A stretch of DNA of 64,000 nucleotides from Betaproteobacteria bacterium (lineage in GTDB: Bacteria > Pseudomonadota > Gammaproteobacteria > Burkholderiales > SG8-39), in contig VBCA01000005.1 in the NCBI GenBank assembly GCA_005881575.1, positions 12,322 to 76,321 on the forward strand, in the 5' to 3' direction. The position numbers were made by a program, and so were the translations under genes. This document shows, piece by piece, positions 4,677 through 42,518 of the stretch. Numbering within the stretch: the first letter of the stretch is position 1; each line of letters starts with the position of its first letter. The notes beneath the pieces are model-generated. The model was not told where the DNA came from. It was given only the letters and a program-made list of their open reading frames with translations, and did no database searches.

Positions 4677-4717
4677 CTGGAATCCCCTGGGGCGAGAGGG
4701 TAAAATTATCTTACCAC

Positions 4718-4791
4718 GCGGGTGTAGTTCAATGGTAGAACGAAAGCTTCCCAAGCTTAAGACGAGGGTTCGATTCCCTTCACCCGCTCCA
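4718..4791 (+). tRNA. tRNA-Gly (anticodon CCC)
   Basis: It folds by hand into a cloverleaf. Acceptor GCGGGTG/CACCCGC, D arm GTTC..GAAC, anticodon loop TTCCCAA, T arm GAGGG-TTCGATT-CCCTT, encoded CCA. Confidence 0.9.
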
Positions 4792-4797
4792 AATCAA

Positions 4798-5703
4798 ATG
4801 CCCGCGTCCTTCGACGGTAAGCTGGTCGTCGCCATTTCCTCCAGGGCTCTGTTCGATCTGGAGGAATCGAATCGGGTGTTCGAAGAGCAGGGCGTGACCG
4901 CCTACTACCGGTATCAGCTCGAGCACGAGAACGAGATCCTCGCGCCCGGGATCGCGTTCGCGCTGGTGAGGAAGCTCTTGAGGCTCAACACGCTCGCGCC
5001 CGCTCGAGCCCGGGTGGAAGTGATCCTGCTTTCGCGCAACACCGCCGACACGGGGATGCGCATCATGAACGCGATCGAGCACTACAAGCTCGACATCTCG
5101 CGCGCGGCCTTCACCGGGGGGGAGAACACCTATCCCTACGTGCCGGCGTTCGATGCGCATCTGTTTCTCTCCGCCAATCCCGTGGATGTGCGCAAGGCCC
5201 TGGACGCGGGGCATGCGGCCGCGACGATCCTGCCTTCCCACGTCGGGAAGAGCGTCGAGGCGACGGAGGGTTTGCGCATCGCCTTCGACGGCGATGCCGT
5301 GCTCTTCTCCGACGAGGCCGAGCGCGTCTACAAGCGGGACGGCCTGGACGCCTTCACCGCGAGCGAGGTCGCCGCGGCCAAGGAGCCTCTGTCGGGAGGC
5401 CCTTTCAAGAGTTTTCTGGCGGCGCTGCATCGCATCCAGTCCGAATTCCCGGCGGACCGCGCGCCCATCCGCACCGCGCTGGTGACGGCGCGCAGCGCGC
5501 CCGCCCACGAACGCGTCGTGCGCACGCTGCGCGCCTGGAACATCCGCATCGACGAAGCCTTGTTTCTGGGCGGGTTGGACAAGGGCCCGTTCCTGAAAGC
5601 CTTCGGCGCGGACATTTTTTTCGACGACCAGCGCGGCCACGTCGAGTCGGCGAGCCGCCACGTCACGGCCGGGCATGTGCCGTTCGGCGTCGCCAACGAA
5701 TAG
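4798..5703 (+). CDS. 5'-nucleotidase family protein (cN-IA/PF06189-like)
   Basis: 301 aa from the ATG just after the tRNA. The sequence LVVAISSRALFDLEESNRVFEEQG..AY..YQ...E...L.PG.AF..V ... FFDDQ..H resembles the bacterial cytosolic 5'-nucleotidase family. Confidence 0.6.
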   Translation: MPASFDGKLVVAISSRALFDLEESNRVFEEQGVTAYYRYQLEHENEILAPGIAFALVRKLLRLNTLAPARARVEVILLSRNTADTGMRIMNAIEHYKLDISRAAFTGGENTYPYVPAFDAHLFLSANPVDVRKALDAGHAAATILPSHVGKSVEATEGLRIAFDGDAVLFSDEAERVYKRDGLDAFTASEVAAAKEPLSGGPFKSFLAALHRIQSEFPADRAPIRTALVTARSAPAHERVVRTLRAWNIRIDEALFLGGLDKGPFLKAFGADIFFDDQRGHVESASRHVTAGHVPFGVANE

Positions 5704-12443: not shown

Positions 12444-13886
12444 TCAAAGAGACTTTCTCATGCTCACGGAAGGTATCTGCAGCGACTCGCGGTACTTCGC
12501 GATGGTGCGACGCGCGACCACGATGCCCTGCTGGCTGAGGATCTCGGCGATCTTGCTGTCCGAAAGGGGTTTCCGGGCATCCTCGGCGGCAACCAGCTGC
12601 TTGAGCAACGCCCGGATAGCGGTCGCCGAGCACGCACCCCCCGTCTCGGTGGCGACGTGACTCCCGAAGAAGTACTTGAGCTCGAAAATGCCGCGCGGCG
12701 TGAACATGAACTTCTGAGTCGTGACGCGCGAGACGGTCGATTCGTGCAGGCCGAGCGTGTTTGCGATTTCGCGCAGCACCAGCGGCCGCATCCCGACCTC
12801 GCCGTGCTCGAAAAAATGGCGCTGCCGGTCGACGATCGCCTGCGACACGCGCAGGATCGTCTCGAACCGCTGCTGCACGTTCTTGATCAGCCAGCGTGCC
12901 TCCTGCAGCTGATGCGAGAGCTGGCCGCCCGACTGACTGCGGTTGTTCTGCAGGATATCGGCATACATGCGATTGATGCGCAGCTTCGGCAGCGCGTCGG
13001 GGTTGAGGCTCGCCACCCAGACGTTCTTGATTTTCTTCACTACGACGTCGGGCACGATGTAGCGCGTCTCGCTGGTCGAGAACGCGGCGCCGGGACGCGG
13101 GTTGAGGCTCTGGATCAGTCTCTGGGCCTGGCGCAGCTCGTCGTCTCCGCATTGCAGCGCCTTCCTGAGCTTCGAAAAGTCGCGCGCCGCAAGGAGCTGG
13201 AGGTGCTCGTGCGCGACGGCGAGAGCCGTGGCGCGGCTCGGCGTGGACTCGGGCAAGGCGAGCAGCTGCAGCTCGAGACATTCCGAGCAGTTGCGGGCAC
13301 CCACGCCCGTCGGGTCGAAGTTCTGCAGGTGCTTGAGGGCGATGGCCAGCTCTTCGGGCTCGATCTGCAACTCCTCGGGCACGAGCTGAGCGAGCTCCTC
13401 GATGGGCTGCGTGAGATAACCGCCTTCGTCGAGCGCTTCTATCAGGAACGCGACCAGGTTGCGGTCGCGCGGTTCGAGCTGGGTCAGGGAGAGTTGCCGG
13501 TGCAGATGCTCTCGCAGATTGGGAGACTCGGCGGGGACCTGGAAAAAATCGCCGTCATCGGCGTCGTCGCGCGTCCCCGAGCTCGAGCCGCCTTCACCCC
13601 CCCAGTCGGCGTCAGCCGAGAAAATGTCCGTCTGCGGCGGATTCTCGACGCTCGCCTCCTCGGCGGGCGCCTGAAGGGCGGTCGCCGGCTCGCCGTTCAT
13701 GTGCGCGAGGGGTGCCGGAATCTCGCCGTCGGCGTCTTCTCGCTCGAGGAGCGGATTTTCCGCTAGAAATTTCTCGAGCTCCTGATTCAACTCCATCGTC
13801 GAGAGCTGCAGCAGGCGTATCGATTGCTGCAGCTGCGGCGTCAGCGTCAGGTGCTGCGAGAGCTTGAGTTGTAGGGTCTGCTTCAT
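12444..13886 (-). CDS. rpoN: RNA polymerase sigma-54 factor
   Basis: 480 aa. It has the N-terminal region I (MKQTLQLKLSQHLTLTPQLQQSIRLLQLS) and the RpoN box (ARRTIAKYRE). Confidence 0.97.
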   Translation of the reverse strand: MKQTLQLKLSQHLTLTPQLQQSIRLLQLSTMELNQELEKFLAENPLLEREDADGEIPAPLAHMNGEPATALQAPAEEASVENPPQTDIFSADADWGGEGGSSSGTRDDADDGDFFQVPAESPNLREHLHRQLSLTQLEPRDRNLVAFLIEALDEGGYLTQPIEELAQLVPEELQIEPEELAIALKHLQNFDPTGVGARNCSECLELQLLALPESTPSRATALAVAHEHLQLLAARDFSKLRKALQCGDDELRQAQRLIQSLNPRPGAAFSTSETRYIVPDVVVKKIKNVWVASLNPDALPKLRINRMYADILQNNRSQSGGQLSHQLQEARWLIKNVQQRFETILRVSQAIVDRQRHFFEHGEVGMRPLVLREIANTLGLHESTVSRVTTQKFMFTPRGIFELKYFFGSHVATETGGACSATAIRALLKQLVAAEDARKPLSDSKIAEILSQQGIVVARRTIAKYRESLQIPSVSMRKSL

Positions 13887-19515: not shown

Positions 19516-21282
19516 TTACTTTCCCGATGCGGAAACGGCCCTCGCCATGACGAGCAAGGGTTCGACCGCGCTTCGATCCGCGGTGCGCGCTTGCTCGAGG
19601 ATCAGGATCGTCGCATTGACTCGGTGCGGAAACGTTTCCAGGGCTCGCGCGAGCAGACTGCGCGCTTTTTCCGCCTCCCCGCTGAGGGCTAGGAAGACCG
19701 CGCGTCGTGCCACCACCGTATTGGCGGGCCAGTAGCGGGCTACGCGCTCGCTCAGGGCCAGCTTCTCGGCAAGCTCGCTCCGGTCCAGCGGAGCGCCGAT
19801 CAATATCCATAGCTCCGCCAGGGGCGCCATGAGCCCGTGGGTCAGCTCGCGCATGGTTGCGGCGTCCTGTTGTGCTTGGGTGGCAGAGGTGAGCGTAACG
19901 GTTGTTCCGGTGATGCGGGTGACGTCGAGTCGCATGTAATCCCTGAGCATGATCGCCGAGGCGACGGAAAGCACGATGCAGACGGCACCCGCGCTAATCG
20001 CGCTCGCGCGCGCGACCGCCAGCGAGGGCCCCGCTCGCGCGCTTGCTCCTATCAAAAGCGCGGTGACGCCGAGGAAGTGTGCACTCCAGAACGGAAACTC
20101 GGTCAGCGAGTGGATCATTTCGATTCCAACCGCGGCAATGATCCACCACGAAGCGACCTCCCGCCCCGTCCAGTAACGCCGCGCGGCCTGCCACCCCCAG
20201 ACGCACAGACCGCCCAGTACCAGGAGCGTGCCCACCAGGCCGGTTTCGGCAAGGAGGTGCAGGGGAACATTGTGCGGCGAAGTCCAGACTTCACCGATTG
20301 TCGTGAGCGACGGATCAAGCCCGATCTCGAACGCGGCACCGGCGAACTCGCCGGTGCCGACGCCGCCGAAAGGGGCACTGAGAAATACGCGTAGCGCGAT
20401 CAGCCATACCTGCCATCGCGGCTCGCCGTGTTCGAGGCGATCGATTGCCCCTTCACCCGAGGGGCCGAGATGGAGTGCCGCGTTGAGCCACGGCACTGCA
20501 AAATGGGCTGCTAAGACTGCGCCCGCGATTCCGCAGGCAGCAATTTTCGGGCGCCACTTTTGGGCGCCTTCTTGAGTGCGCGCCGCTAGAAACCCGAGCG
20601 CCGCATACCATAGCGCGTAGAGCAGGGTGCCGCGCGAGCCGGACAGCGCGCCGCCCAGAACGAGCAGGGCCAGGGCCGGAAGTGCATACGCCGTCCGCAC
20701 TCGCTCGCGCAGCCACAGGAACAGGAGCGCGCCTTCCCCGAGCGCCAGGTAGTTGGCATAAAGATTCGCTTGGGCGATGTTTCCGTAGGCGCGGTTGCCG
20801 TGCAGCTCGGCGACGACATCCTCGAACAGCTTGGGTCGGCCATAGAACTGCATGACCCCCGCCAGCGAATTCGCAAGAGCGCCGGCCAGAAGAAACATGG
20901 CCAGTACCGTCGCCACGCGCGCGATACCGAGCTCAGCCGTGAGTTGTGCCCCGAGCCAAATCATCAGCGCGGCGTAGAGGACGTACAGCGCAGCGACCAC
21001 GGGCAATTGGGAATAGACGTGCCCGCCGCTCGCCGCCTGGGCGGCGAGAAACGCCGCGAAGACGATCAGCCATAGCGCCGGCACGGGCGAGGACACGAAG
21101 GATACGGCCGTGACACCTCGCCCGACGAGCAGGGTCAGCGCGGCTGCAATGCCCAGCGCTGCGGCCAGCCATCCGGGGAAAAAACTCAGGATGGGCTGCT
21201 GGTGATACGCCAGCAGGAACGGCAGCAGACACAGGCTGCCCGCGAGCAACAGGCTTATTGTTTGGCCCGAGCTTGTCTTCAC
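19516..21282 (-). CDS. PglL/TfpO-type O-antigen-ligase-family protein (predicted pilin O-oligosaccharyltransferase)
   Basis: 588 aa, polytopic. The N-terminus (LLPFLLAYHQQPILSFFPGWLA) resembles the PglL_A signature, the middle is Wzy_C-like, and the helical C-terminal domain resembles Wzy_C_2. It lies directly downstream of two pilin genes. GTG start. Confidence 0.7.
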   Translation of the reverse strand: MKTSSGQTISLLLAGSLCLLPFLLAYHQQPILSFFPGWLAAALGIAAALTLLVGRGVTAVSFVSSPVPALWLIVFAAFLAAQAASGGHVYSQLPVVAALYVLYAALMIWLGAQLTAELGIARVATVLAMFLLAGALANSLAGVMQFYGRPKLFEDVVAELHGNRAYGNIAQANLYANYLALGEGALLFLWLRERVRTAYALPALALLVLGGALSGSRGTLLYALWYAALGFLAARTQEGAQKWRPKIAACGIAGAVLAAHFAVPWLNAALHLGPSGEGAIDRLEHGEPRWQVWLIALRVFLSAPFGGVGTGEFAGAAFEIGLDPSLTTIGEVWTSPHNVPLHLLAETGLVGTLLVLGGLCVWGWQAARRYWTGREVASWWIIAAVGIEMIHSLTEFPFWSAHFLGVTALLIGASARAGPSLAVARASAISAGAVCIVLSVASAIMLRDYMRLDVTRITGTTVTLTSATQAQQDAATMRELTHGLMAPLAELWILIGAPLDRSELAEKLALSERVARYWPANTVVARRAVFLALSGEAEKARSLLARALETFPHRVNATILILEQARTADRSAVEPLLVMARAVSASGK

Positions 21283-21301
21283 TCAGAGTCGGCCGGAAAC
21301 G

Positions 21302-21327
21302 AAAAGGCCCGCGCGAGCGGGCCTTTT
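21302..21327 (-). terminator. Rho-independent terminator/attenuator after the pilin genes
   Basis: The sequence is AAAA-GGCCCGC-gcga-GCGGGCC-TTTT, a perfect 7-bp GC stem flanked by A and T tracts. It sits 20 nt after the pilin-1 stop and before the ligase gene. Confidence 0.75.
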
Positions 21328-21346
21328 GCGGTGACGGGAGGCGTGG

Positions 21347-22018
21347 TTAAAAAGCCTTGCAGACCAGGTACTGACTCACCCCGGTTTCCACATAGCCCGT
21401 GGCCGGGGTTGCGGCCAGGTCAGGATTCGCGGTGGTCTGCAGTTGCGCGCGCACCTGGCCGGTCGCCGAGTTGCTGTCGTCGATCTGCGAGTCTATCGCA
21501 ATCGCGACCTTGTCCGGTATATTCGAGCTGCATAGCGTCAGACCGGTGAAGCCCAGACCGACTGTCGGGACCACTGCGTTCTCCACGCCGACGATGCCTC
21601 CGGCCGCGTTCGGCGGATTCGTCGCGGCGCCGCTTCCCGTGGTCAAGCCCGCGACGAATCCGGCGATGCGCAAGTGTTGCCAGAACAAGTGGGATTCCTT
21701 CGTAAGGTCGACGTCATTGTACTTGCCTGCGATGACCCCGTTGCCGTCACCGCTTGCGGGAGCCTGGACGGTCCAGCGCGCGGTGGCATTCGGGTCGTCT
21801 CCGGGGAGGGCGCGGTAACGGTCCTGGTAGGAGGTCACGGCCACGGCGACCCCGTTGAAATCGTTGATCGCGTTTTTGATCTTGGCCTGGGTGATCATTT
21901 CCTGGCCCTTCAGGATGCCGCCCAGGAGCAGTCCGATGATGACGAGCACGATCGCGATTTCGACCAAGGTGAAACCGGCCTCGGTCGAATTTCTGTTGCT
22001 GAAAGCAGATGCGGTCAT
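21347..22018 (-). CDS. Type IV pilin-like protein, paralogue 1 (prepilin-type N-terminal cleavage/methylation domain)
   Basis: The sequence MTASAFSNRNSTEAG|FTLVEIAIVLVIIGLLLGG has G-1, F+1 and E+5. Two Cys residues (LCSSN..., YLVCKAF) could form a C-terminal disulfide loop. GGAGG lies 6 nt upstream of the ATG at 22018. Confidence 0.85.
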   Translation of the reverse strand: MTASAFSNRNSTEAGFTLVEIAIVLVIIGLLLGGILKGQEMITQAKIKNAINDFNGVAVAVTSYQDRYRALPGDDPNATARWTVQAPASGDGNGVIAGKYNDVDLTKESHLFWQHLRIAGFVAGLTTGSGAATNPPNAAGGIVGVENAVVPTVGLGFTGLTLCSSNIPDKVAIAIDSQIDDSNSATGQVRAQLQTTANPDLAATPATGYVETGVSQYLVCKAF

Positions 22019-22085
22019 AGGAGCCTCCAAAGCGCAGAAGTCTAGGTCAGTCGGGGGAAACGTGCACGAGCTGGTTGTTGAGCGG

Positions 22086-22781
22086 CTATAAGTTCTTGCA
22101 CAGCAGATACTGATTCACCCCGGTTTCCACGTAGGCCGTCGCCGCGCCTCCGGCGTCGCTAGCCGTAGGCGGATTCGCGGTGCCCTGGAGCTGCCCGCGG
22201 ATCTGGCCGGTCGCCGGGTTGCTGTCGTCCATCTGGCCGTCGACCGCGCTCGCCACCTTCTCCGGCAGGTTCGCGAAGCACACGATCAGGCTGGTGAAAC
22301 CCAGGCCGTTTGTGCCGGGCGCGCCCGACTCCACGCCGATCATGCCCCCGGCTGCATTCGTCGGCTGCGTCCCGCTTCCGGCTCCCGTGGTCAGGCCCGG
22401 GACGAATCCGGCGATGCGCAGATGCTGCCAGAACAGGTTGGATTCCGCTGCTGAGGTCGGGGCGCCCGCCCCTGGAAGGGCGTTGTAAAGGCCCGCGATG
22501 ATCCCGTTGCCGTTACCGCTTGCGGGATTCTGGACGGTCCAGCGTGTGGTGGCGTTCAAGTCGTCTCCCGGAATGGCGCGGTAGCGGTCCTGATAGGACG
22601 TCACGGCCACGGTGATGCCGTTGAAGTCGTTGACGATGTTCTTGATCTTGGCCTGGGTGATCATTTCCTGGCCCTTGAGCACGCCGCCCAAGAGCAGCCC
22701 GATGATCACGAGCACGATTGCGATCTCGACCAAAGTAAAACCCGCCTCGGTCGAATTCTTGCTGAAATTGGACAAACTCAT
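22086..22781 (-). CDS. Type IV pilin-like protein, paralogue 2
   Basis: It reads MSLSNFSKNSTEAG|FTLVEIAIVLVIIGLLLGG and is roughly 70% identical by eye to paralogue 1. The ATG at 22781 lies about 33 nt downstream of the predicted sigma-54 transcription start. Confidence 0.85.
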   Translation of the reverse strand: MSLSNFSKNSTEAGFTLVEIAIVLVIIGLLLGGVLKGQEMITQAKIKNIVNDFNGITVAVTSYQDRYRAIPGDDLNATTRWTVQNPASGNGNGIIAGLYNALPGAGAPTSAAESNLFWQHLRIAGFVPGLTTGAGSGTQPTNAAGGMIGVESGAPGTNGLGFTSLIVCFANLPEKVASAVDGQMDDSNPATGQIRGQLQGTANPPTASDAGGAATAYVETGVNQYLLCKNL

Positions 22782-22825
22782 GCAACCCCCAAAAATCAAA
22801 ACGGAGTAAAGATTCAACGAAACTC

Positions 22826-22840
22826 GCAAAATATGTGCCC
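22826..22840 (-). promoter_or_regulatory. Sigma-54 (-24/-12) promoter of the pilin genes
   Basis: The minus strand reads GGGCAC-atatt-TTGCG, compared with the consensus TGGCAC-N5-TTGCW. The GG/GC spacing is exact, and it lies 45-60 nt upstream of the pilin-2 ATG. Confidence 0.75.
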
Positions 22841-22851
22841 GAGAGTATACC

Positions 22852-22930
22852 CGGACACGCCACTTTTCATCGTGGGTGAGTCAGCCCTTTTTGTTGAAAA
22901 ATGGACACTTACGACGACTATCTGACACTT
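22852..22930 (-). promoter_or_regulatory. Candidate enhancer (UAS) with three GTGTC repeats
   Basis: The minus strand reads aaaGTGTCag-(N13)-aaGTGTCca-(N46)-gcGTGTCcg. The first two repeats are 20 bp apart. They lie 15-90 bp upstream of the -24 element in an AT-richer stretch. Confidence 0.45.
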
Positions 22931-22934
22931 TGCC

Positions 22935-23657
22935 TTAGTTCTTCCCCGGGGTCTTTCCGATCCGCGCTTCCAGTTGTTTCAGGCGCTCATCCAGGAATCT
23001 CAGCTCGGCCGGGTCCTTCACTCTCCCGCTTTGGAGATACCCCCCGATGATGAGACGGGCGGTTTCCAGCTCGTTCATGTCTTCCAGGATGAAGATCTCC
23101 ATCTGCTTCGCCCAGAGGGGAACGTCGTCGGCGACGGCGTAGCGCTGGATCGCTCGAGCGTAGCGGAGTGCGAGCGGCAGATCATGGAGCCGGTGCTTGG
23201 CGATGGCGGTGGCATGGGCAAGCCAGGGCCAGCGACGATTGGGATCGAGCAGGAACTGCCGATAAACGAACTCGAGCATGCTGCGCTGCTTGGCCTCGAC
23301 GGGCACTTCGGCATACAGCCTGCTCGCGGCGAGGAGGGGGTATTGGCCTCGCGGGTCCAGATCCAGTATTCTCGCGAGCCAAGCTTCCAGCCGGCCATAA
23401 TCGAGATCGCGATAGGGGACCTTGCTGCCGGATTGATAGTCGAACGCCTGTAAGTACAGCATCAGTGCCTTGCCGAGCGCCACGGGATCCCCGAAGCTCG
23501 CGAGCCTGAGCGCGGCGATGCTCGGCGCGGGCGCCAAATCCTCTGCCGCCGCCCGGGGCGGCGGGGCGGTGGCCTTCAGCCCGATCTGCGCGGCGAGCCC
23601 CAGAGCGAACAGCACGAGAACGCCACGCGGCACTACTGCAATCGATCGCTGTGACAT
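22935..23657 (-). CDS. Hypothetical exported/membrane-anchored helical protein (no family recognised)
   Basis: 240 aa with an N-terminal hydrophobic segment (VLVLFALGLAAQIGL) followed by a helical-repeat-like sequence. It starts 3 nt after the permease gene, so it is probably co-transcribed. Confidence 0.6.
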   Translation of the reverse strand: MSQRSIAVVPRGVLVLFALGLAAQIGLKATAPPPRAAAEDLAPAPSIAALRLASFGDPVALGKALMLYLQAFDYQSGSKVPYRDLDYGRLEAWLARILDLDPRGQYPLLAASRLYAEVPVEAKQRSMLEFVYRQFLLDPNRRWPWLAHATAIAKHRLHDLPLALRYARAIQRYAVADDVPLWAKQMEIFILEDMNELETARLIIGGYLQSGRVKDPAELRFLDERLKQLEARIGKTPGKN

Positions 23658-23660
23658 CGT

Positions 23661-24425
23661 CTAAAAGTTCTTTCGGTACAAATCGAAAAGCGCCGCGGAA
23701 CAGATCAGCACGAGGTAGAGCGCGGTCTGGCCGACGACGGGGCCGAGAGTGCTGACGCTCGGCGCCGATCCCAGCAGCCAAGTGGTCTGCGTCATCGCGT
23801 CGAGCGCCGGCAGCAGGAGCGCGATCAGGTTCACAACGGCATTCACCGCGCGATCGGTGAGGGTAGGATCCTGCAGCGGTGCGCCGGCGATGATCTGCAT
23901 TGCCGCCATTGAACGCGACAGCAGGTAGAAGCCTGCAACGGCGGCAAACGCCGGGACCACTTGCGCGAAAGACACCACGCAAAACAGACTCATAGCCGTC
24001 ACGATCAACAATTCGCAGATGAGGGAAAGAGTCCAGAGGGCGAGTCCCTGGGAATTTGCGAACGGCACCAAAGGCAGCGCGCTGAGCAGCGCAAGGATAG
24101 CGGCGAGCATGGCGTAACCGGCAAACTTTCCGAAAAAATAGGCGGAACGCGGCGCCGGCAGGGAGAGCAGCAGCTCGGTGACCTTGTCGCTCAATTCCCT
24201 CACCGTGCTCGTGATCACGAACACGGCCACGATGAAGACGGCGGCGACCCTGAGCGGGGCGGCGAGCAATGCGGTCTGGATCTCTCGAGATTCGGTGATC
24301 GCCACTTGATTCAGAAATTGGGCGAGGCCGAACGCGATTACCACGACCACTACCGCAAGCCACAAGAGGCGGTTTCGAACCGCCTCGAGCAAAGTAGCTC
24401 TAGCCAGCGAAGCGACGATGGGCAT
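23661..24425 (-). CDS. ABC-2 type transporter permease-like membrane protein
   Basis: 254 aa with about 6 hydrophobic spans. The opening ARATLLEAVRNRLLWLAVVVVVIAF is typical of ABC-2/NosY-like permeases. There is no adjacent ATPase gene. Confidence 0.6.
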   Translation of the reverse strand: MPIVASLARATLLEAVRNRLLWLAVVVVVIAFGLAQFLNQVAITESREIQTALLAAPLRVAAVFIVAVFVITSTVRELSDKVTELLLSLPAPRSAYFFGKFAGYAMLAAILALLSALPLVPFANSQGLALWTLSLICELLIVTAMSLFCVVSFAQVVPAFAAVAGFYLLSRSMAAMQIIAGAPLQDPTLTDRAVNAVVNLIALLLPALDAMTQTTWLLGSAPSVSTLGPVVGQTALYLVLICSAALFDLYRKNF

Positions 24426-24466
24426 GGCAAGTGTGGAATACGGCCTGAGTGCTCACAAGTCAAAGC

Positions 24467-24482
24467 TGGCACAATACGTGCC
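24467..24482. promoter_or_regulatory. Palindromic sigma-54-type element in the divergent permease/kinase intergenic region
   Basis: The sequence TGGCAC-aatac-GTGCC reads as GG-N10-GC on both strands: plus TGGCACAATACGTGC, minus AGGCACGTATTGTGC. It lies 42 nt upstream of the permease ATG and about 140 nt upstream of the kinase ATG. Confidence 0.5.
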
Positions 24483-24620
24483 TGTGGGAGCGTAAGTCCA
24501 CGGGGAGGGTTTGCGCAAGTCCGCACGATGTCTCCCCGATCTGACTGCCACAGACTCGGGAGAGGATAATATGCATCGCGGGCCTTTGAGCGCACTGCCT
24601 TTCGCGAACCCCGCTCTCGG

Positions 24621-26357
24621 ATGACCCAGGGTATGGCGACGACTGCCGCGCTTCAGATTTCTCAGCTTTTCATCGCGAGGTCATGGCGAGCTCTTTTTGT
24701 CGTCATGCTGGTGTCCCTGCATCTTGCCGCGATGTGGGGTACTGAGGATTACTGGGCGCGCGGCTTGATGCTCGCGCACTTCGGGCTTTTCATCCTCTGG
24801 CAGCCCTTCATGCGTAGCGAGCATCGCCTGACCTCGGCGCAGGTTGCGGCGATCGCTGCGATTGCGTTGGGGACCCTCTATTTCCTCAACTGGTGGCTGC
24901 TCGCCCTCTGGGTCAGCGTTCTGGCGGGAATCGTGGGCGGCAAGGTGTTCCTCTTCCAGGCACGGTGGCTGCGGCGCTTCTATCTCGTGGTGTTGCTGTA
25001 TCTCGTCTCGCTGCTGCTCATTTGGATCGTCCCGAACACCTTTCGTGTGCCCCTGCCCAATGAGGTCGAATTGCTGGCGCAATACGGCTTGCCCGTGCTG
25101 TTCCTCGTGATGGTTGCGATTCCCGCCGAGACGGACTCCGCGGAAACTCCCCAGGTCGTCGATTTTTTCTATGCCGCGATGATCGTGCTGCTGCTGATCG
25201 CCCTTGCGCTGGGCAGCTTTGCCTTCATGACGGTGGGCAAGATCGACTACATCATGGCTCTTTCGTTCAGCATGCTGATCATAGCGGGCGTGCTGCTGCT
25301 ACTCTCCTTCGCCTGGAACCCGCGCGCCGGATTCAGCGGGCTTTCCGTATATTTCTCGCGCTATCTGCTGTCGATAGGGCTGCCGTTCGAGCGCTGGCTG
25401 TATTTCTTGGCCGAGCTGTCGCAGCTCGAGACCAAGCCCGAGCGCTTCATGAAAGAGGCCTGCGTCGGCCTCGCGCGCCTACCCTGGGTGTCCGGCGGCT
25501 TCTGGCACACGGCGGGTGAGTCGGGCGATTTCGGCAAGGTCTCCAAGAACTCCGTCGAGTTCACCAACCAGGAAATCCACTTGCGGGTTTTCACCAAGCT
25601 GGCGTTGAGCCCTTCGCTGGTCTGGCACTTCCAGCTGCTCGGACAGCTTCTCGGCGAGTTCTATGTCGCCAAGCAGCGCGAGCAGAAACTCCAGCAGCAG
25701 ACCTACGTGCAAGCCGTTCACGAGACCGGGGCGCGCATGACGCACGACGTGAAGAACCTGCTGCAGTCTCTGAACGTTCTGTGCGCGGCCGCCGAGCGCG
25801 ATACCGCATCCGATGCAGACGGCGAACTGTCCTCGCTCATGCGCCGACAGCTCCCGGCGATTACGCTGCGCTTGCAGCAGACGCTCGACAAGCTGCAAAA
25901 GCCCGACGCGAGTAACGGTCGTTTCATCAAGGCCGATACGTGGTGGGAGGGCCTGCAGCGCAGCTATGCCGGTCGTGGCGTCGAGTTTTCCCGCGAGGGG
26001 CAGGGGGACTCCGTGATGCTGCCGAAGGAGCTCTTCGACAGCGCGGGCGACAATCTGCTGCAGAATGCGCTGCGAAAGCGCAGACTCGATGAATCCGTCG
26101 CCGTGCGCGCGACCTTCCGCTGCAACGACACCATCGAGTTTTCCGTGTGCGACAGCGGCGCTCCGGTGGCCGCGGAAGTGCTGCGTGGGCTGATGAGGGG
26201 GCCGGTGCCTTCGGAAACCGGATTCGGCATCGGCCTGTACCAGACCAGCCGGCTCGCCGAAATCTCGGGATTCTCGCTGCAACTGCGAGACAACGAGAGT
26301 GGCCGGGTGTGCTTCAGCCTGCGGGGAGAAGTGCGCCGCGGCGCACGCGGGCAGTGA
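24621..26357 (+). CDS. Multi-pass membrane sensor histidine kinase (PilS/PrsK-like)
   Basis: 578 aa. The first ~300 aa contain many TM helices. It has an H-box (ARMTHDVKNLLQSL) and an HATPase_c domain (DNLLQNALRK..., G.GIGLYQ). Confidence 0.85.
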   Translation: MTQGMATTAALQISQLFIARSWRALFVVMLVSLHLAAMWGTEDYWARGLMLAHFGLFILWQPFMRSEHRLTSAQVAAIAAIALGTLYFLNWWLLALWVSVLAGIVGGKVFLFQARWLRRFYLVVLLYLVSLLLIWIVPNTFRVPLPNEVELLAQYGLPVLFLVMVAIPAETDSAETPQVVDFFYAAMIVLLLIALALGSFAFMTVGKIDYIMALSFSMLIIAGVLLLLSFAWNPRAGFSGLSVYFSRYLLSIGLPFERWLYFLAELSQLETKPERFMKEACVGLARLPWVSGGFWHTAGESGDFGKVSKNSVEFTNQEIHLRVFTKLALSPSLVWHFQLLGQLLGEFYVAKQREQKLQQQTYVQAVHETGARMTHDVKNLLQSLNVLCAAAERDTASDADGELSSLMRRQLPAITLRLQQTLDKLQKPDASNGRFIKADTWWEGLQRSYAGRGVEFSREGQGDSVMLPKELFDSAGDNLLQNALRKRRLDESVAVRATFRCNDTIEFSVCDSGAPVAAEVLRGLMRGPVPSETGFGIGLYQTSRLAEISGFSLQLRDNESGRVCFSLRGEVRRGARGQ

Positions 26358-39412: not shown

Positions 39413-40837
39413 CTATTGCTGCTTCTGCGCCGATTCCATGCGGGAGTACAAGGTCGTTCGATTGATGCCGAGCATCTTGGCCGCCTGACTGACGTTGCCT
39501 CGCGTGAGCTTCATCGCGGCCTCGATGTACCCCTGTTCCCACGCCTTGAGCATCTGATCGAGATTGAAGCTGCGCTCGCGCTGCAGATGGCGCTGCGCCT
39601 GCTCGATGAGCGTTCCCGGATCCGACGGCAATCCCGGTGCGCCGTCGGCCTGCGCTTCCAAATCGAATTCGGGCTCGAGTTCCGCAAGGGACAGCTTCTG
39701 CCCGGCGTACTTGGTGGTCAGCCGGATGACGACGTTGCGCAGCTCGCGCACGTTGCCCGGAAAGTGATAGTCGCGCCAGGCCTTTTGCGCTGAATCGTCC
39801 AGCGCGAACGGCGCGAGCTTCGCTTGCTCCGCGTAGAACTTGCGGTAGTGCTCGAGCAGCAGCGTGCGATCGTCGTCCATCTCGCGCAGCGACGGCACCT
39901 CGATCGTGAACACCGACAGCCGGTGATACAGGTCGGCGCGGAAGTTCCCTTTCCTGACTTCCTGGCGCAGGTCGCGATTGGTGGCGGCGATCACCCGGGA
40001 ACGCGAGAAACGCTGCTGGGTCTCGCCGACACGCTGGAACTCGCCGTTCTCGAGCACGCGCAGAAGCTTGGCTTGCAGCTCCAGGGGCAACTCGCCGATC
40101 TCATCCAGAAACAGCGTTCCGTCGCTCGCATCTTCGAAATAGCCTGATTTGTTCTGCGTCGCGCCGGTGAACGCGCCCTTGGTGTAGCCGAAAAGCGTGG
40201 GCTCGACCAAGGTCGGCGCGATCGCCGCGCAGTTCAGAGCGAACCACGGCTTCACGCGCCTCCACGAAAGGCGATGGAGAAGGTTCGCCACCACTTCCTT
40301 GCCGGTCCCGGATTCGCCTTCGATGAGCGCCGGAAAGGGCGAGTCGGCGTATTGGCTGATCTGACTCTTCAGCTTCTGCAGCGCGGGGCTCTTGCCGACC
40401 AGGGGGTCGGTCTCGGCGATTCCTTCTCCCGAAATTTCGGCCGCGCGAAACTGGAGGGCGTGCAGCAGGATCTTCTTGAGATTCTCCGGATCGCTCGGCT
40501 TGGCGACGAACTCCGCCGCGCCGAGCGTGCGCGCGTGCCTCGCGTTGGCAGCGTCGTTCTGGCCAGAGAGCACCAGGATCTTCATGGTCGGGGAATGCGC
40601 GAGCAAGTCGCTGATCAGCTGGAAGCCCTCGTCGGGCCGGTGGGGCATGGGGGGTAGGCCGAGATCGACCAGCGCGAGCTGCGGGGCCTCGTCGAGCTGC
40701 CTCAGCAGACTCACGGCATGGTGGCGCGAATCGCTTACCATGACCTCGAAGTCCTTTCCGAGCGCGTAGGACAGGGTCTCGGTGATGAGTGGATCGTCGT
40801 CGACGATCAACAGGCTGGGATGGCGATCTTCAGGCAT
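39413..40837 (-). CDS. Sigma-54-dependent response regulator (PilR/PrsR-like)
   Basis: 474 aa. It has a receiver domain (LLIVDDDP...DLGLPP...PDEGF), an AAA+ domain with Walker A GESGTGKE and the GAFTGA sigma-54 contact motif, and a C-terminal Fis-type HTH ([21 protein letters not shown]). Confidence 0.9.
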
Positions 40838-41555
40838 GGGCTTCGATGCATTTCAGGAAGGCGCGCTCCAGCGACGTTTCCCCGTAGCGCTCGCGCAGCC
40901 CGCCGGGCGAGCCCGCGTAGGCCATCGTTCCCTCGTGGAGAACGGTGACGCGGTCGCAGACCTCCTCGACGTCGGCGAGCGAATGCGAGGTGAAAAGCAG
41001 GGTTCGCCCCTCGGACTTGAGGTTCAGGAGCAGGTCCCTGGCGCGATCGCGTGCCTTGGGGTCCAGGCCGCTCATCGGCTCGTCGAGAACGTACAGATCG
41101 CGTTGCGAAAGAAAGCAGGCGGCAAGCCCCAGTTTCTGGGTCATGCCCTTCGAATAGGCGCGGACCGGCTTGTCGAGGGCAGCGACCTCCAGATCGAGCG
41201 CAGCGAACATTGCGCGAACGCGCTCCTCCTCGTATCGGCATTCGAACAATCGCAGCATCATCGCTATGAACTCGCGACCGGTGAGAAAGTATGGGGCGGT
41301 AAATCGCTCGGGCAGGAACGCAAGACGCGCGCGGGCCCGCGGACGGCGGTGCGCGGTGCCGTGGATCTCGATCGCACCCGAATCGAGGTCGCAGAAGTCG
41401 AGCAGGCACTTGATCAAGGTGGTCTTGCCGGCGCCGTTCACACCGGCCAGGCCCACGCACTCGCCCGAATGAACGTCGAGATCGATTCCGCGCAGCACTT
41501 CGGCGCGACCAAAGCTCTTGCTCACTCCGAGGAATCGAACCGACGGCTCGGGCAT
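40830..41555 (-). CDS. ABC transporter ATP-binding protein (ABC-2 subtype), first gene of the pilus operon
   Basis: 241 aa from the ATG at 41555, with Walker A GVNGAGKTT, signature YSKGMTQKLGLA and Walker B LYVLDEP. Its stop overlaps the regulator start by 8 nt. The remainder of the 561-aa track ORF is antisense to mlaF. Confidence 0.85.
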   Translation of the reverse strand: MPEPSVRFLGVSKSFGRAEVLRGIDLDVHSGECVGLAGVNGAGKTTLIKCLLDFCDLDSGAIEIHGTAHRRPRARARLAFLPERFTAPYFLTGREFIAMMLRLFECRYEEERVRAMFAALDLEVAALDKPVRAYSKGMTQKLGLAACFLSQRDLYVLDEPMSGLDPKARDRARDLLLNLKSEGRTLLFTSHSLADVEEVCDRVTVLHEGTMAYAGSPGGLRERYGETSLERAFLKCIEAHA

Positions 41556-41717
41556 AAGGCAGCCCTTCGTGGGGAGGCGTCGATGATAGCGCAAAGACGG
41601 CGCTCTTTCACGGCGAAACTCCGATTGCCGCGCGATCGCTCGAGAGCGGCCCAGGTATGTCGTGGCGCGCCTTTCTGGGCTAGAATTCGCCCTTCGCGTA
41701 ATCCCGAGCAGGAAATC

Positions 41718-42518
41718 GTGGCGACAAGCAATCTGGTCGAGGTCCAGAACGTCACGTTCGGCTACGACGAGCGCCAGGTTTTGAAAGACATCAACCTCGT
41801 CGTTCCCCAAGGCAAGGTGGTCGCCATCATGGGTTTGTCCGGGTGCGGGAAAACAACGCTCCTTCGTGTGATCGGCGGAGCGCTTTTGCCCGACCGCGGT
41901 GAAGTTCGCGTCGCCGGCCGCGTGGTCAACAAACTCAGCGATCCGGAGCTTTTCGCTCTGCGGCGCAGGATGGGCATGCTGTTCCAGTTCGGCGCCCTTT
42001 TCACCGATCTGTCCTCGTTCGAAAACGTGGCGTTCCAGATGCGCGAGCACACGAACCTGCCTGAGTCGATCATTCGCGACCTCGCGCTCATGAAGCTGCA
42101 GGCGGTGGGCTTGCGCGGCGCCGCGGATCTCATGCCCTCGGAGCTCTCCGGCGGCATGGCGCGTCGCGTGGCGCTCGCGCGCTCGATTGCGCTCGACCCG
42201 ATGCTCATGATGTATGACGAACCTTTCACGGGCCTCGACCCGATTTCCCTCGGAGTCATCGGCCAGCTGATCCGGCGGCTCAACGACTCGCTCGGCGCGA
42301 CTTCGATCGTCGTAACTCACGACGTCGCCGAAGCGCTCGAACTGGTCGACTACGTCTACTACATGTCCGTAGGAAAGGTCGAATTTCAAGGCACCCCCGA
42401 CCAGGTGCGTGCGGCGGGACTTTCGTCGCTTCGCCAGTTCGTCTATGGCGAGCCCGATGGGCCGGTCCCGTTCCATTACCCGGCGCCGGATTATCGGCAG
42501 GATCTGCTCGCGCAATGA
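41718..42518 (+). CDS. mlaF: Phospholipid ABC transporter ATP-binding protein MlaF
   Basis: It has a GTG start, [11 protein letters not shown] and Walker [10 protein letters not shown]. It is followed by mlaE/D/A/C/B. Confidence 0.9.

Follow-up and report, generated by a model that had tools for sequence, protein, structure and literature searches.

How is transcription of the pilin genes controlled in the pilus locus carried by a 64-kb stretch of DNA from a Betaproteobacteria bacterium (the window, comprising all of the DNA analysed and all of the genome that was visible to us)? The window matches soil metagenome-assembled genomes (MAGs) annotated as Betaproteobacteria or Burkholderiales, and two tandem pilin genes, pilin-2 and pilin-1, lie on its minus strand. 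An intergenic region of 153 bp separates the pilin-2 ATG (22781) from the stop codon (22935) of a gene encoding a 240-amino-acid (240-aa) protein; read 5' to 3' on the minus strand it contains, in order, aaaGTGTCag, taaGTGTCca, gcGTGTCcg, the element GGGCACatattTTGCG, GGGGG and ATG. A first-pass annotation had proposed a near-consensus sigma-54 promoter at this position, preceded in AT-richer sequence by an enhancer of three GTGTC repeats, and the region is indeed AT-richer, with a GC content of 0.458 versus 0.638 for the whole window. We conclude that it is very probably the sigma-54- and enhancer-regulated promoter of an MSHA-type pilin operon (pilin-2, pilin-1 and, probably, a PglL-like gene), driven by an activator, and that its enhancer reads as two imperfect palindromes, not three GTGTC repeats.

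The element GGGCACatattTTGCG preserves the exact GG-N10-GC spacing of a sigma-54 promoter, and 9/11 of the specified positions fit TGGCAC-N5-TTGCW, both mismatches being at outer positions; "near-consensus" was therefore a generous description of a 16-mer with two mismatches. The C of its -12 GC (22826) is situated 45 nt from the pilin-2 ATG, the distance claimed in the first-pass annotation, which had placed the match at 22826-22840 and so left off its last 3' base (22825). Chance levels within the window were judged by expectation and by Markov-shuffled windows. Sites with one mismatch or none to TGGCAC-N5-TTGCW were absent from the window, sites with up to two were fewer than expected (14 observed versus 23), and the core GGCAC-N5-TTGC occurred once, with 0.57 occurrences expected by chance. 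On the window alone the match is suggestive, a plausible lead only, and it becomes more than chance solely through its conservation in orthologous loci. At canonical sigma-54 promoters transcription initiates ~12 nt past the GC and requires rpoN and an activator; this geometry would place the start at ~22814, giving a predicted 5' untranslated region of ~33 nt. No sigma-70-like promoter was found on the pilin strand, and no Rfam family matched between 19000 and 27000 at E <=1.

In order to compare the region across species, 80 loci, each from a different GTDB species, were retrieved with the 240-aa protein as anchor (55-96% identity); counts given below out of 81 loci come from the gene-order comparison at the orthologous pilin loci, and close relatives are the 18 closest loci, which were aligned. 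Circularity was avoided by an unseeded expectation-maximization (EM) motif search, run on the 150 nt that precede the GFTLVE codon in each of 59 non-redundant loci. The top motif was nCtGGCA[C/T]-N5-TTGCg, with column frequencies of 0.99/0.97 for GG, 0.99 for A and 0.97-0.99 for TTGC, and with a spacer that varied; fixed -24/-12 columns around a variable spacer are the footprint expected of a functional sigma-54 promoter. When carriers were counted at a core match score >=9, with shuffled sequences and the opposite strand as controls, the motif was present in 51/59 non-redundant loci, with 0.94 expected from the shuffles and a single match on the opposite strand. Likewise, a GG-N10-GC motif highly similar to the consensus was located 50-130 nt upstream of the GFTLVE codon in 61 of the 64 loci that have a downstream pilin gene. 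Together these data strongly support the proposal that the tandem pilin genes are driven by an evolutionarily conserved sigma-54 promoter.

When all loci were anchored on the -24 box, a conserved block was seen just past the stop codon of the 240-aa gene. The bipartite motif that unseeded EM recovered from the loci, TGTCGgaaantCGtCanAanTGTCganatTTCgACAaa, is 38 nt long and carries 29.8 bits; in the window it corresponds to 22927-22890 on the minus strand and consists of two 16-bp units, A and B, of the form TGTC-N8-G(A/T)C(A/G), their starts 20 bp apart. The pair of GTGTC copies at this spacing was present as annotated (22928-22924 and 22908-22904), within an exact 7-nt direct repeat, AAGTGTC, starting at 22930 and 22910 on the minus strand; the conserved bipartite motif makes these two distal copies the left half-sites of units A and B. 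Unit A has the highest score of any 16-nt position weight matrix match in the window (20.6 bits) and the composite enhancer scores 50.8 bits, versus 3.4 bits for the next unrelated site; the second-highest score, 25.7 bits, belongs to the same palindromic element on the opposite strand. In the 18-locus alignment the only invariant columns are those of the enhancer half-sites, among them the TGTC and CGTC of unit A, and the -24/-12 positions. Both units are clear palindromes in many clades, for example CTGTCGAAGACTCGACA...TGTCATAATTTCGACG.

The bipartite enhancer occupies ~-113 to -76 relative to the predicted start; upstream activator sites of sigma-54 promoters typically lie 80-150 bp upstream and depend on the face of the helix. 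From the enhancer centre to the first G of the -24 box the distance is 67.5-72.5 bp in 50 loci, and elsewhere 79.5-80.5 (4 loci), 88.5-89.5 (2 loci), 99.5 (2 loci) or 113.5 bp (1 locus). Since these outliers are shifted by approximately whole helical turns, the spacing is suggestive of a helical-face requirement, the independent events being few. Neither the strict (0/61 loci) nor the relaxed consensus (2/61, not above shuffles) gave evidence of an IHF site between enhancer and promoter. Gene order differs in eight loci, where an additional gene lies between the 240-aa gene and the pilin, the latter two being ~1.1 kb apart; there the enhancer adjoins the pilin, not the 240-aa gene.

A histidine kinase gene is divergent from the pilin module in most loci (66/81). 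Nine loci, from Undibacterium, Herminiimonas, Sterolibacterium and others, do not have it even though the region is covered, and the enhancer is absent in all nine (best score <=10 bits versus 19-49 elsewhere); 4/5 of the upstream regions of their homologous pilin genes contain no sigma-54 motif at all. The coincident loss of kinase and enhancer ties both enhancer and promoter to the two-component system.

Two lineages were observed to carry other arrangements around the same pilin family. In Undibacterium-type loci without kinase and enhancer (L029, L030, L034, L042 and L079; ~4700-5450) the 240-aa gene is followed by a stretch that resembles the receiver domain of the window's NtrC-family regulator (30-36% identity), and the pilin, lying another ~1.8 kb downstream, lacks a sigma-54 motif; this constitutes a different regulatory arrangement. 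In a sister clade (L031-L036, L038, L043, L044, L057, L068 and L070) the spacer between enhancer and -24 box contains GTGA-N6-TCAC, a pair of CRP/FNR-like half-sites; its centre and the -24 GG downstream of it are separated by exactly 25 bp in 10/11 loci and by 35 bp in one. This sequence is not present in the window, and it suggests an additional regulator at the pilin promoter in those lineages.

The candidate trans-acting factors are encoded in the window itself (Table 1). The sigma-54 gene, rpoN, is located where it had been annotated, with its domains above cut-off. The activator gene encodes an NtrC-family response regulator (Pfam Response_reg, Sigma54_activat and HTH_8), the only protein with a GAFTGA motif in the window. 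Its receiver-AAA+-helix-turn-helix architecture agrees with the "PilR-like" label of the first-pass annotation, although the best NCBIfam matches, both below cut-off, are NtrC (364 bits, cut-off 559) and PrsR, the PEP-CTERM regulator (359 bits, cut-off 503), and a PilR-specific model was not among them; the label is valid only in a functional sense. The divergent kinase is the presumed sensor partner of this activator. Pfam detects only HATPase_c in it, with no PAS or HisKA match, and its C-terminus is weakly PrsK-like (46 bits versus a cut-off of 300).

What comparative analysis demonstrated, at the level of sequence, is that both motifs, promoter and enhancer, exist, that the distance between them is phased, and that they go with the pilin gene and with the kinase; the established mechanism of sigma-54 and its enhancer-binding proteins then suggests how the region would work. 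Sigma-54 RNA polymerase would bind GGGCAC-N5-TTGC (22840-22825) as a closed complex, and two dimers of an NtrC-family enhancer-binding protein would occupy the units at 22927-22912 and 22907-22892, centred ~70 bp upstream of the -24 box on a fixed face of the helix. The activator would then oligomerise and reach the polymerase by short-range looping over these ~70 bp, and its hydrolysis of ATP would open the promoter for transcription from ~22814. From the genomic context we infer that the locus-encoded regulator is the enhancer binder and receives its phosphoryl group from the divergent kinase. It is a speculation, by analogy with what has been proposed for PilS and Nps, that the kinase might sense the pilin load of the membrane through the highly conserved hydrophobic pilin N-terminus.

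Table 1. Features of the pilin promoter region and of the surrounding locus (window coordinates).
Feature	Coordinates	Strand	Description
Sigma-54 -24/-12 element GGGCACatattTTGCG	22825-22840	-	GGGCAC-atatt-TTGCG; GG 22839-22838, GC 22827-22826
Predicted transcription start	22812-22816	-	~22814, 12 nt past the -12 C; from canonical sigma-54 geometry
Enhancer (upstream activator sequence, UAS) unit A TGTCAGATAGTCGTCG	22912-22927	-	~-113 to -98; holds first GTGTC; from unseeded EM
Enhancer (UAS) unit B TGTCCATTTTTCAACA	22892-22907	-	TGT-N10-ACA; ~-93 to -78; holds second GTGTC
Hairpin GTGTCCGGG-tatact-CTCGGGCAC	22835-22858	-	Left arm is third GTGTC, right arm is -24 box; outside conserved enhancer
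Pilin-2	22086-22781	-	231 aa; prepilin leader MSLSNFSKNSTEAG/FTLVE; N_methyl domain; Shine-Dalgarno GGGGG 22790-22786
Pilin-1	21347-22018	-	223 aa; pilin-2 paralogue, 160 identical residues over 232 aligned columns
Wzy_C/PglL-like O-antigen-ligase family protein	19516-21282	-	Pfam Wzy_C_2, Wzy_C, weak PglL_A
Membrane-anchored all-helical protein	22935-23657	-	240 aa; stop codon abuts enhancer
ABC-2-type permease	23661-24425	-	Upstream of 240-aa gene in 81/81 loci
Second candidate sigma-54 promoter TGGCACaatacGTGCC	24467-24482	+	Palindromic (cTGGCACaatacGTGCCt); 140 nt upstream of kinase ATG
Polytopic histidine kinase	24621-26357	+	Hydrophobic segments within residues 70-229; H-box His375; HATPase_c; divergent from pilin module
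NtrC-family response regulator	39413-40837	-	Receiver, AAA+ with GAFTGA, HTH_8; head of MSHA-type assembly operon
ABC ATPase	40830-42515	-	Only ABC ATPase of locus; overlaps start of activator gene
rpoN (sigma-54)	12444-13886	-	Sigma54_AID, CBD and DBD domains all above cut-off

Several points weigh against this interpretation. The promoter 16-mer, with its two consensus mismatches, is statistically unremarkable in the window when taken alone; the right half of unit A (GTCG) deviates from the palindromic GACA; and, unlike the Neisseria pilE promoter, the spacer between enhancer and promoter has no IHF-type site. No further copies of the enhancer were found in the 64-kb window near other operons, such as those of the assembly proteins, the regulator or the kinase, so that the activator, if it is the binder, would have a single-promoter regulon within the window, and its own gene is 16.6 kb from the enhancer. 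The joint loss of kinase and enhancer may reflect one or a few evolutionary events. Finally, all of the organisms compared are uncultured MAGs.

The distance of the regulator gene, together with its place at the head of a different operon, bears on whether a genuine promoter and enhancer might be served by another enhancer-binding protein encoded elsewhere, be it a true PilR or a protein specific for TGT-N10-ACA. TGT-N10-ACA is the classical NifA UAS, and only 64 kb of the genome were visible. A PilR site resembling TGT-N11-ACA has also been described (PMC8035640). We consider such an outside binder improbable: no protein of the window other than the regulator has a GAFTGA motif, and the regulator belongs to the same pilus locus; the kinase beside the pilin module, itself an orphan, calls for an orphan response regulator; and the loss of that kinase coincides with the loss of enhancer and promoter. 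A true NifA-type UAS was considered and rejected; both unit B and the family consensus TGTC-N8-GACA fit TGT-N10-ACA, and the position of ~-80 to -110 and the phase-dependent helix face are shared, but NifA has a GAF domain and controls nif genes, whereas the local activator has a receiver domain in place of a GAF domain and sits in a pilus locus.

Known pilin systems provide closer parallels. PilR, Npa and PilRX each work from upstream sites to switch on a pilin promoter of the sigma-54 type (PMC6058289, PMC6528607, PMC7170775, PMC2725144); for pilA, control by PilS-PilR and sigma-54 is credited to Ishimoto & Lory 1992 and Jin et al. 1994 in the later accounts that cite them (PMC6058289, PMC8035640). 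With PilS-PilR the locus shares a major-pilin gene transcribed from a -24/-12 promoter, a receiver-AAA+-helix-turn-helix response regulator as activator with its site ~80-120 bp upstream (binding being predicted in the present case), TGT...ACA sequences with TGTC/GTCT-type elements, and a polytopic partner kinase. The Pseudomonas aeruginosa PilR site is described as a NifA-like TGT-N11-ACA with nearby GTCT elements (PMC6058289, PMC8035640), and our units, TGTC-N8-GACA and hence TGT-N10-ACA, have the same half-site with a spacing one base shorter. The genes for PilS and PilR are adjacent and next to the pilin, whereas here the kinase is beside the pilin module and the regulator is 13 kb away from it; PilS has six transmembrane segments with PAS, HisKA and HATPase_c domains, and the kinase of the window has a polytopic N-terminus and an H-box, HATPase_c being the only one of these domains that Pfam detects in it; and the target of PilS-PilR is a type IVa major pilin, that of the present locus an MSHA-type one. 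Jin and colleagues reportedly described four tandem (C/G)TGTC repeats at the PilR site; the enhancer of the window has two phased 16-bp units instead.

The Nps-Npa system, which acts with RpoN and IHF on pilE of commensal Neisseria, likewise involves a betaproteobacterial sigma-54 pilin promoter and a two-component enhancer-binding protein acting through a UAS. A kinase that senses pilin accumulation in the membrane, proposed for both PilS and Nps (PMC6058289, PMC6528607), is a model common to Nps-Npa and to our locus (PMC6528607). There, an IHF site between UAS and promoter is required (PMC6528607; Rendon et al. 2013, cited there), whereas the 61 loci examined here have no IHF consensus and a short (~70 bp), helically phased distance.

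The element is thus a well-supported but ordinary case of sigma-54 pilin control, and it leaves the understanding of such promoters unchanged. It extends control by sigma-54 and an enhancer, known for type IVa pilins, to an MSHA-type pilin; no report of such control of an MSHA-type pilin was found in the searchable literature, which is weak negative evidence. For a pilus system that is frequent among uncultured Burkholderiales of grassland and soil, it also yields a testable cis-regulatory map, which takes in the promoter, the two units of the enhancer, a spacing constrained by phase, and a kinase and regulator as candidate partners; the doubled consensus TGTC-N8-GACA can be used to search Burkholderiales genomes for further targets.

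Between the enhancer and the -12 box lies the predicted hairpin listed in Table 1. The hairpin may act weakly to terminate read-through, or the sequence may simply be specific to the lineage. If it is an intrinsic terminator or attenuator, albeit a weak one, it would block read-through from the ABC-2 permease and 240-aa genes; it is the only terminator-like match in 21200-24700, its RNA fold has an energy of -21.6 kcal/mol (z-score -2.9) with AUAUUUU following, and a CCGGG(C) box upstream of the -24 box is found in >=70% of the close relatives. We regard this function as unlikely, however, because the T-run is short and interrupted, the pairing is kept only partly in relatives and is gone in distant clades, and the right arm, being the -24 box, would be constrained in any case. 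Were the hairpin to stop read-through, pilin transcription would depend on the sigma-54 promoter, which is compatible with the explanation we prefer.

The left arm of the hairpin contains the third, proximal GTGTC (22858-22854 on the minus strand), which the first-pass annotation had counted as a functional third activator site. It has the same strand and pentamer as the distal copies, and a same-strand triple within 80 bp occurs only once in the window; even so, ~15% of Markov-shuffled windows hold such a triple somewhere, and the pentamer itself is not over-represented (83 found versus 105 expected). In close relatives the third copy is replaced by CTGTC, TTGTA, CTGTA, CGGCC and others, even where the flanking protein is 92-96% identical. 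It falls outside the motif found without a seed, and its position, ~-44 to -40, is within the region that must loop. Because it is not conserved even in the closest relatives, the third GTGTC was rejected as a part of the enhancer, and a role for it as an activator site is highly improbable; of the enhancer as first annotated, the upstream location and the two distal copies hold, and the third does not. A second same-strand pair of GTGTC exactly 20 bp apart was noted inside the PglL-like gene (21116/21096, in 21070-21125, minus strand); it has no right half-sites, scores -27 bits on the enhancer model, and is a chance occurrence that warns against reading a bare repeat as a site.

That the -24/-12 match is itself accidental, with pilin transcription due to a sigma-70 promoter or to read-through, could appeal to the two mismatches and to a core expected about once in every two windows, but this scarcely credible alternative is effectively refuted by a strand-specific motif, recovered unseeded, that most of the orthologous loci conserve against about one expected, and by a pilin strand free of any sigma-70-like site.

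The surrounding genes identify the pilus. On the minus strand the locus reads ABC ATPase, activator, MshM-like AAA protein, MshL secretin, tetratricopeptide repeat (TPR) protein, ATPase with an MshE-type motif and GspF-like protein, followed by several unassigned open reading frames and a pseudopilin; then comes the plus-strand kinase, and after it, again on the minus strand, the ABC-2 permease, the 240-aa protein, pilin-2, pilin-1 and the Wzy_C/PglL-like protein. The secretin passes the MshL equivalog cut-off (251.2 bits versus 250.2) and the ATPase has an MshE-type cyclic di-GMP-binding N-terminal motif; with the MshM-, MshN- and GspF-like proteins, this gene content marks the locus as that of an MSHA-type type IV pilus. 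The MSHA loci of Vibrio and Shewanella (mshHIJKLMNEGF / mshBACD) share the MshL secretin, the MshE c-di-GMP ATPase, the MshM-like AAA protein, the TPR MshN-like protein and the GspF-like protein, whereas the present locus differs in also encoding a sigma-54 activator of its own, together with the polytopic kinase, the ABC-2 transporter module and the PglL-like protein.

The exact pilin-2 protein was found in public soil MAGs. Between pilin-2 and pilin-1 the gap is 67 nt, and neither a second promoter (sigma-54 or sigma-70) nor a terminator was found in it, so that pilin-1 is probably co-transcribed with pilin-2. The PglL-like gene, which is in the same position in 23/81 loci, is probably the last gene of the operon, and its product is a candidate pilin O-glycosyltransferase.

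The conserved gene order consists of the kinase, divergent from the ABC-2 permease, then the 240-aa gene and one to three pilins; permease and 240-aa gene (22935-24425, minus strand) precede the pilin in 81/81 loci. Neither Pfam nor NCBIfam gave a match to the 240-aa protein, for which public data contain 4514 homologues at E <=1e-5. Its AlphaFold2 model is of mediocre confidence (pLDDT 67.6) and shows an N-terminal helix followed by helical repeats; the fold matches are weakly TPR-like, none at E <=0.001, and the model is uninformative with regard to the promoter. The ABC ATPase has a 320-aa N-terminal extension without a family match, and together with the permease and the 240-aa protein it seems to form a transporter-type module linked to the two-component system.

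The kinase gene may itself depend on sigma-54, which would give feedback. In the divergent gap between kinase and ABC-2 permease sits the second candidate promoter of Table 1, and unseeded EM recovered TGGCA[C/T]-N5-xTGC facing the kinase gene in ~35/59 non-redundant loci, with a spacer that varies in the distant ones; no TGTC-N8-GACA enhancer was found near it. We entertain, tentatively and as a rather doubtful extension, that the pilin promoter and enhancer are the output of an undescribed sensory module in which the PrsK-like kinase, the ABC-2 permease, the helical-repeat protein and the long ABC ATPase gate the MSHA-type pilin, the kinase being under its own palindromic sigma-54 promoter with positive feedback. 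If so, the module would respond to membrane pilin load or to a transported substrate, and would be widespread in uncultured soil Burkholderiales, given the >4,500 homologues of the 240-aa protein.

Across the loci (L001-L080 compared with 21347-22781 of the window) leader peptides, pilin copy number (1-3) and the presence of the PglL-like gene vary, and the mature pilin N-terminus, GFTLVEIAIVLVIIGLLLGG(I/V)LKGQEMITQAKIKN, is near-invariant, even in lineages in which the flanking protein is only 55-65% identical.

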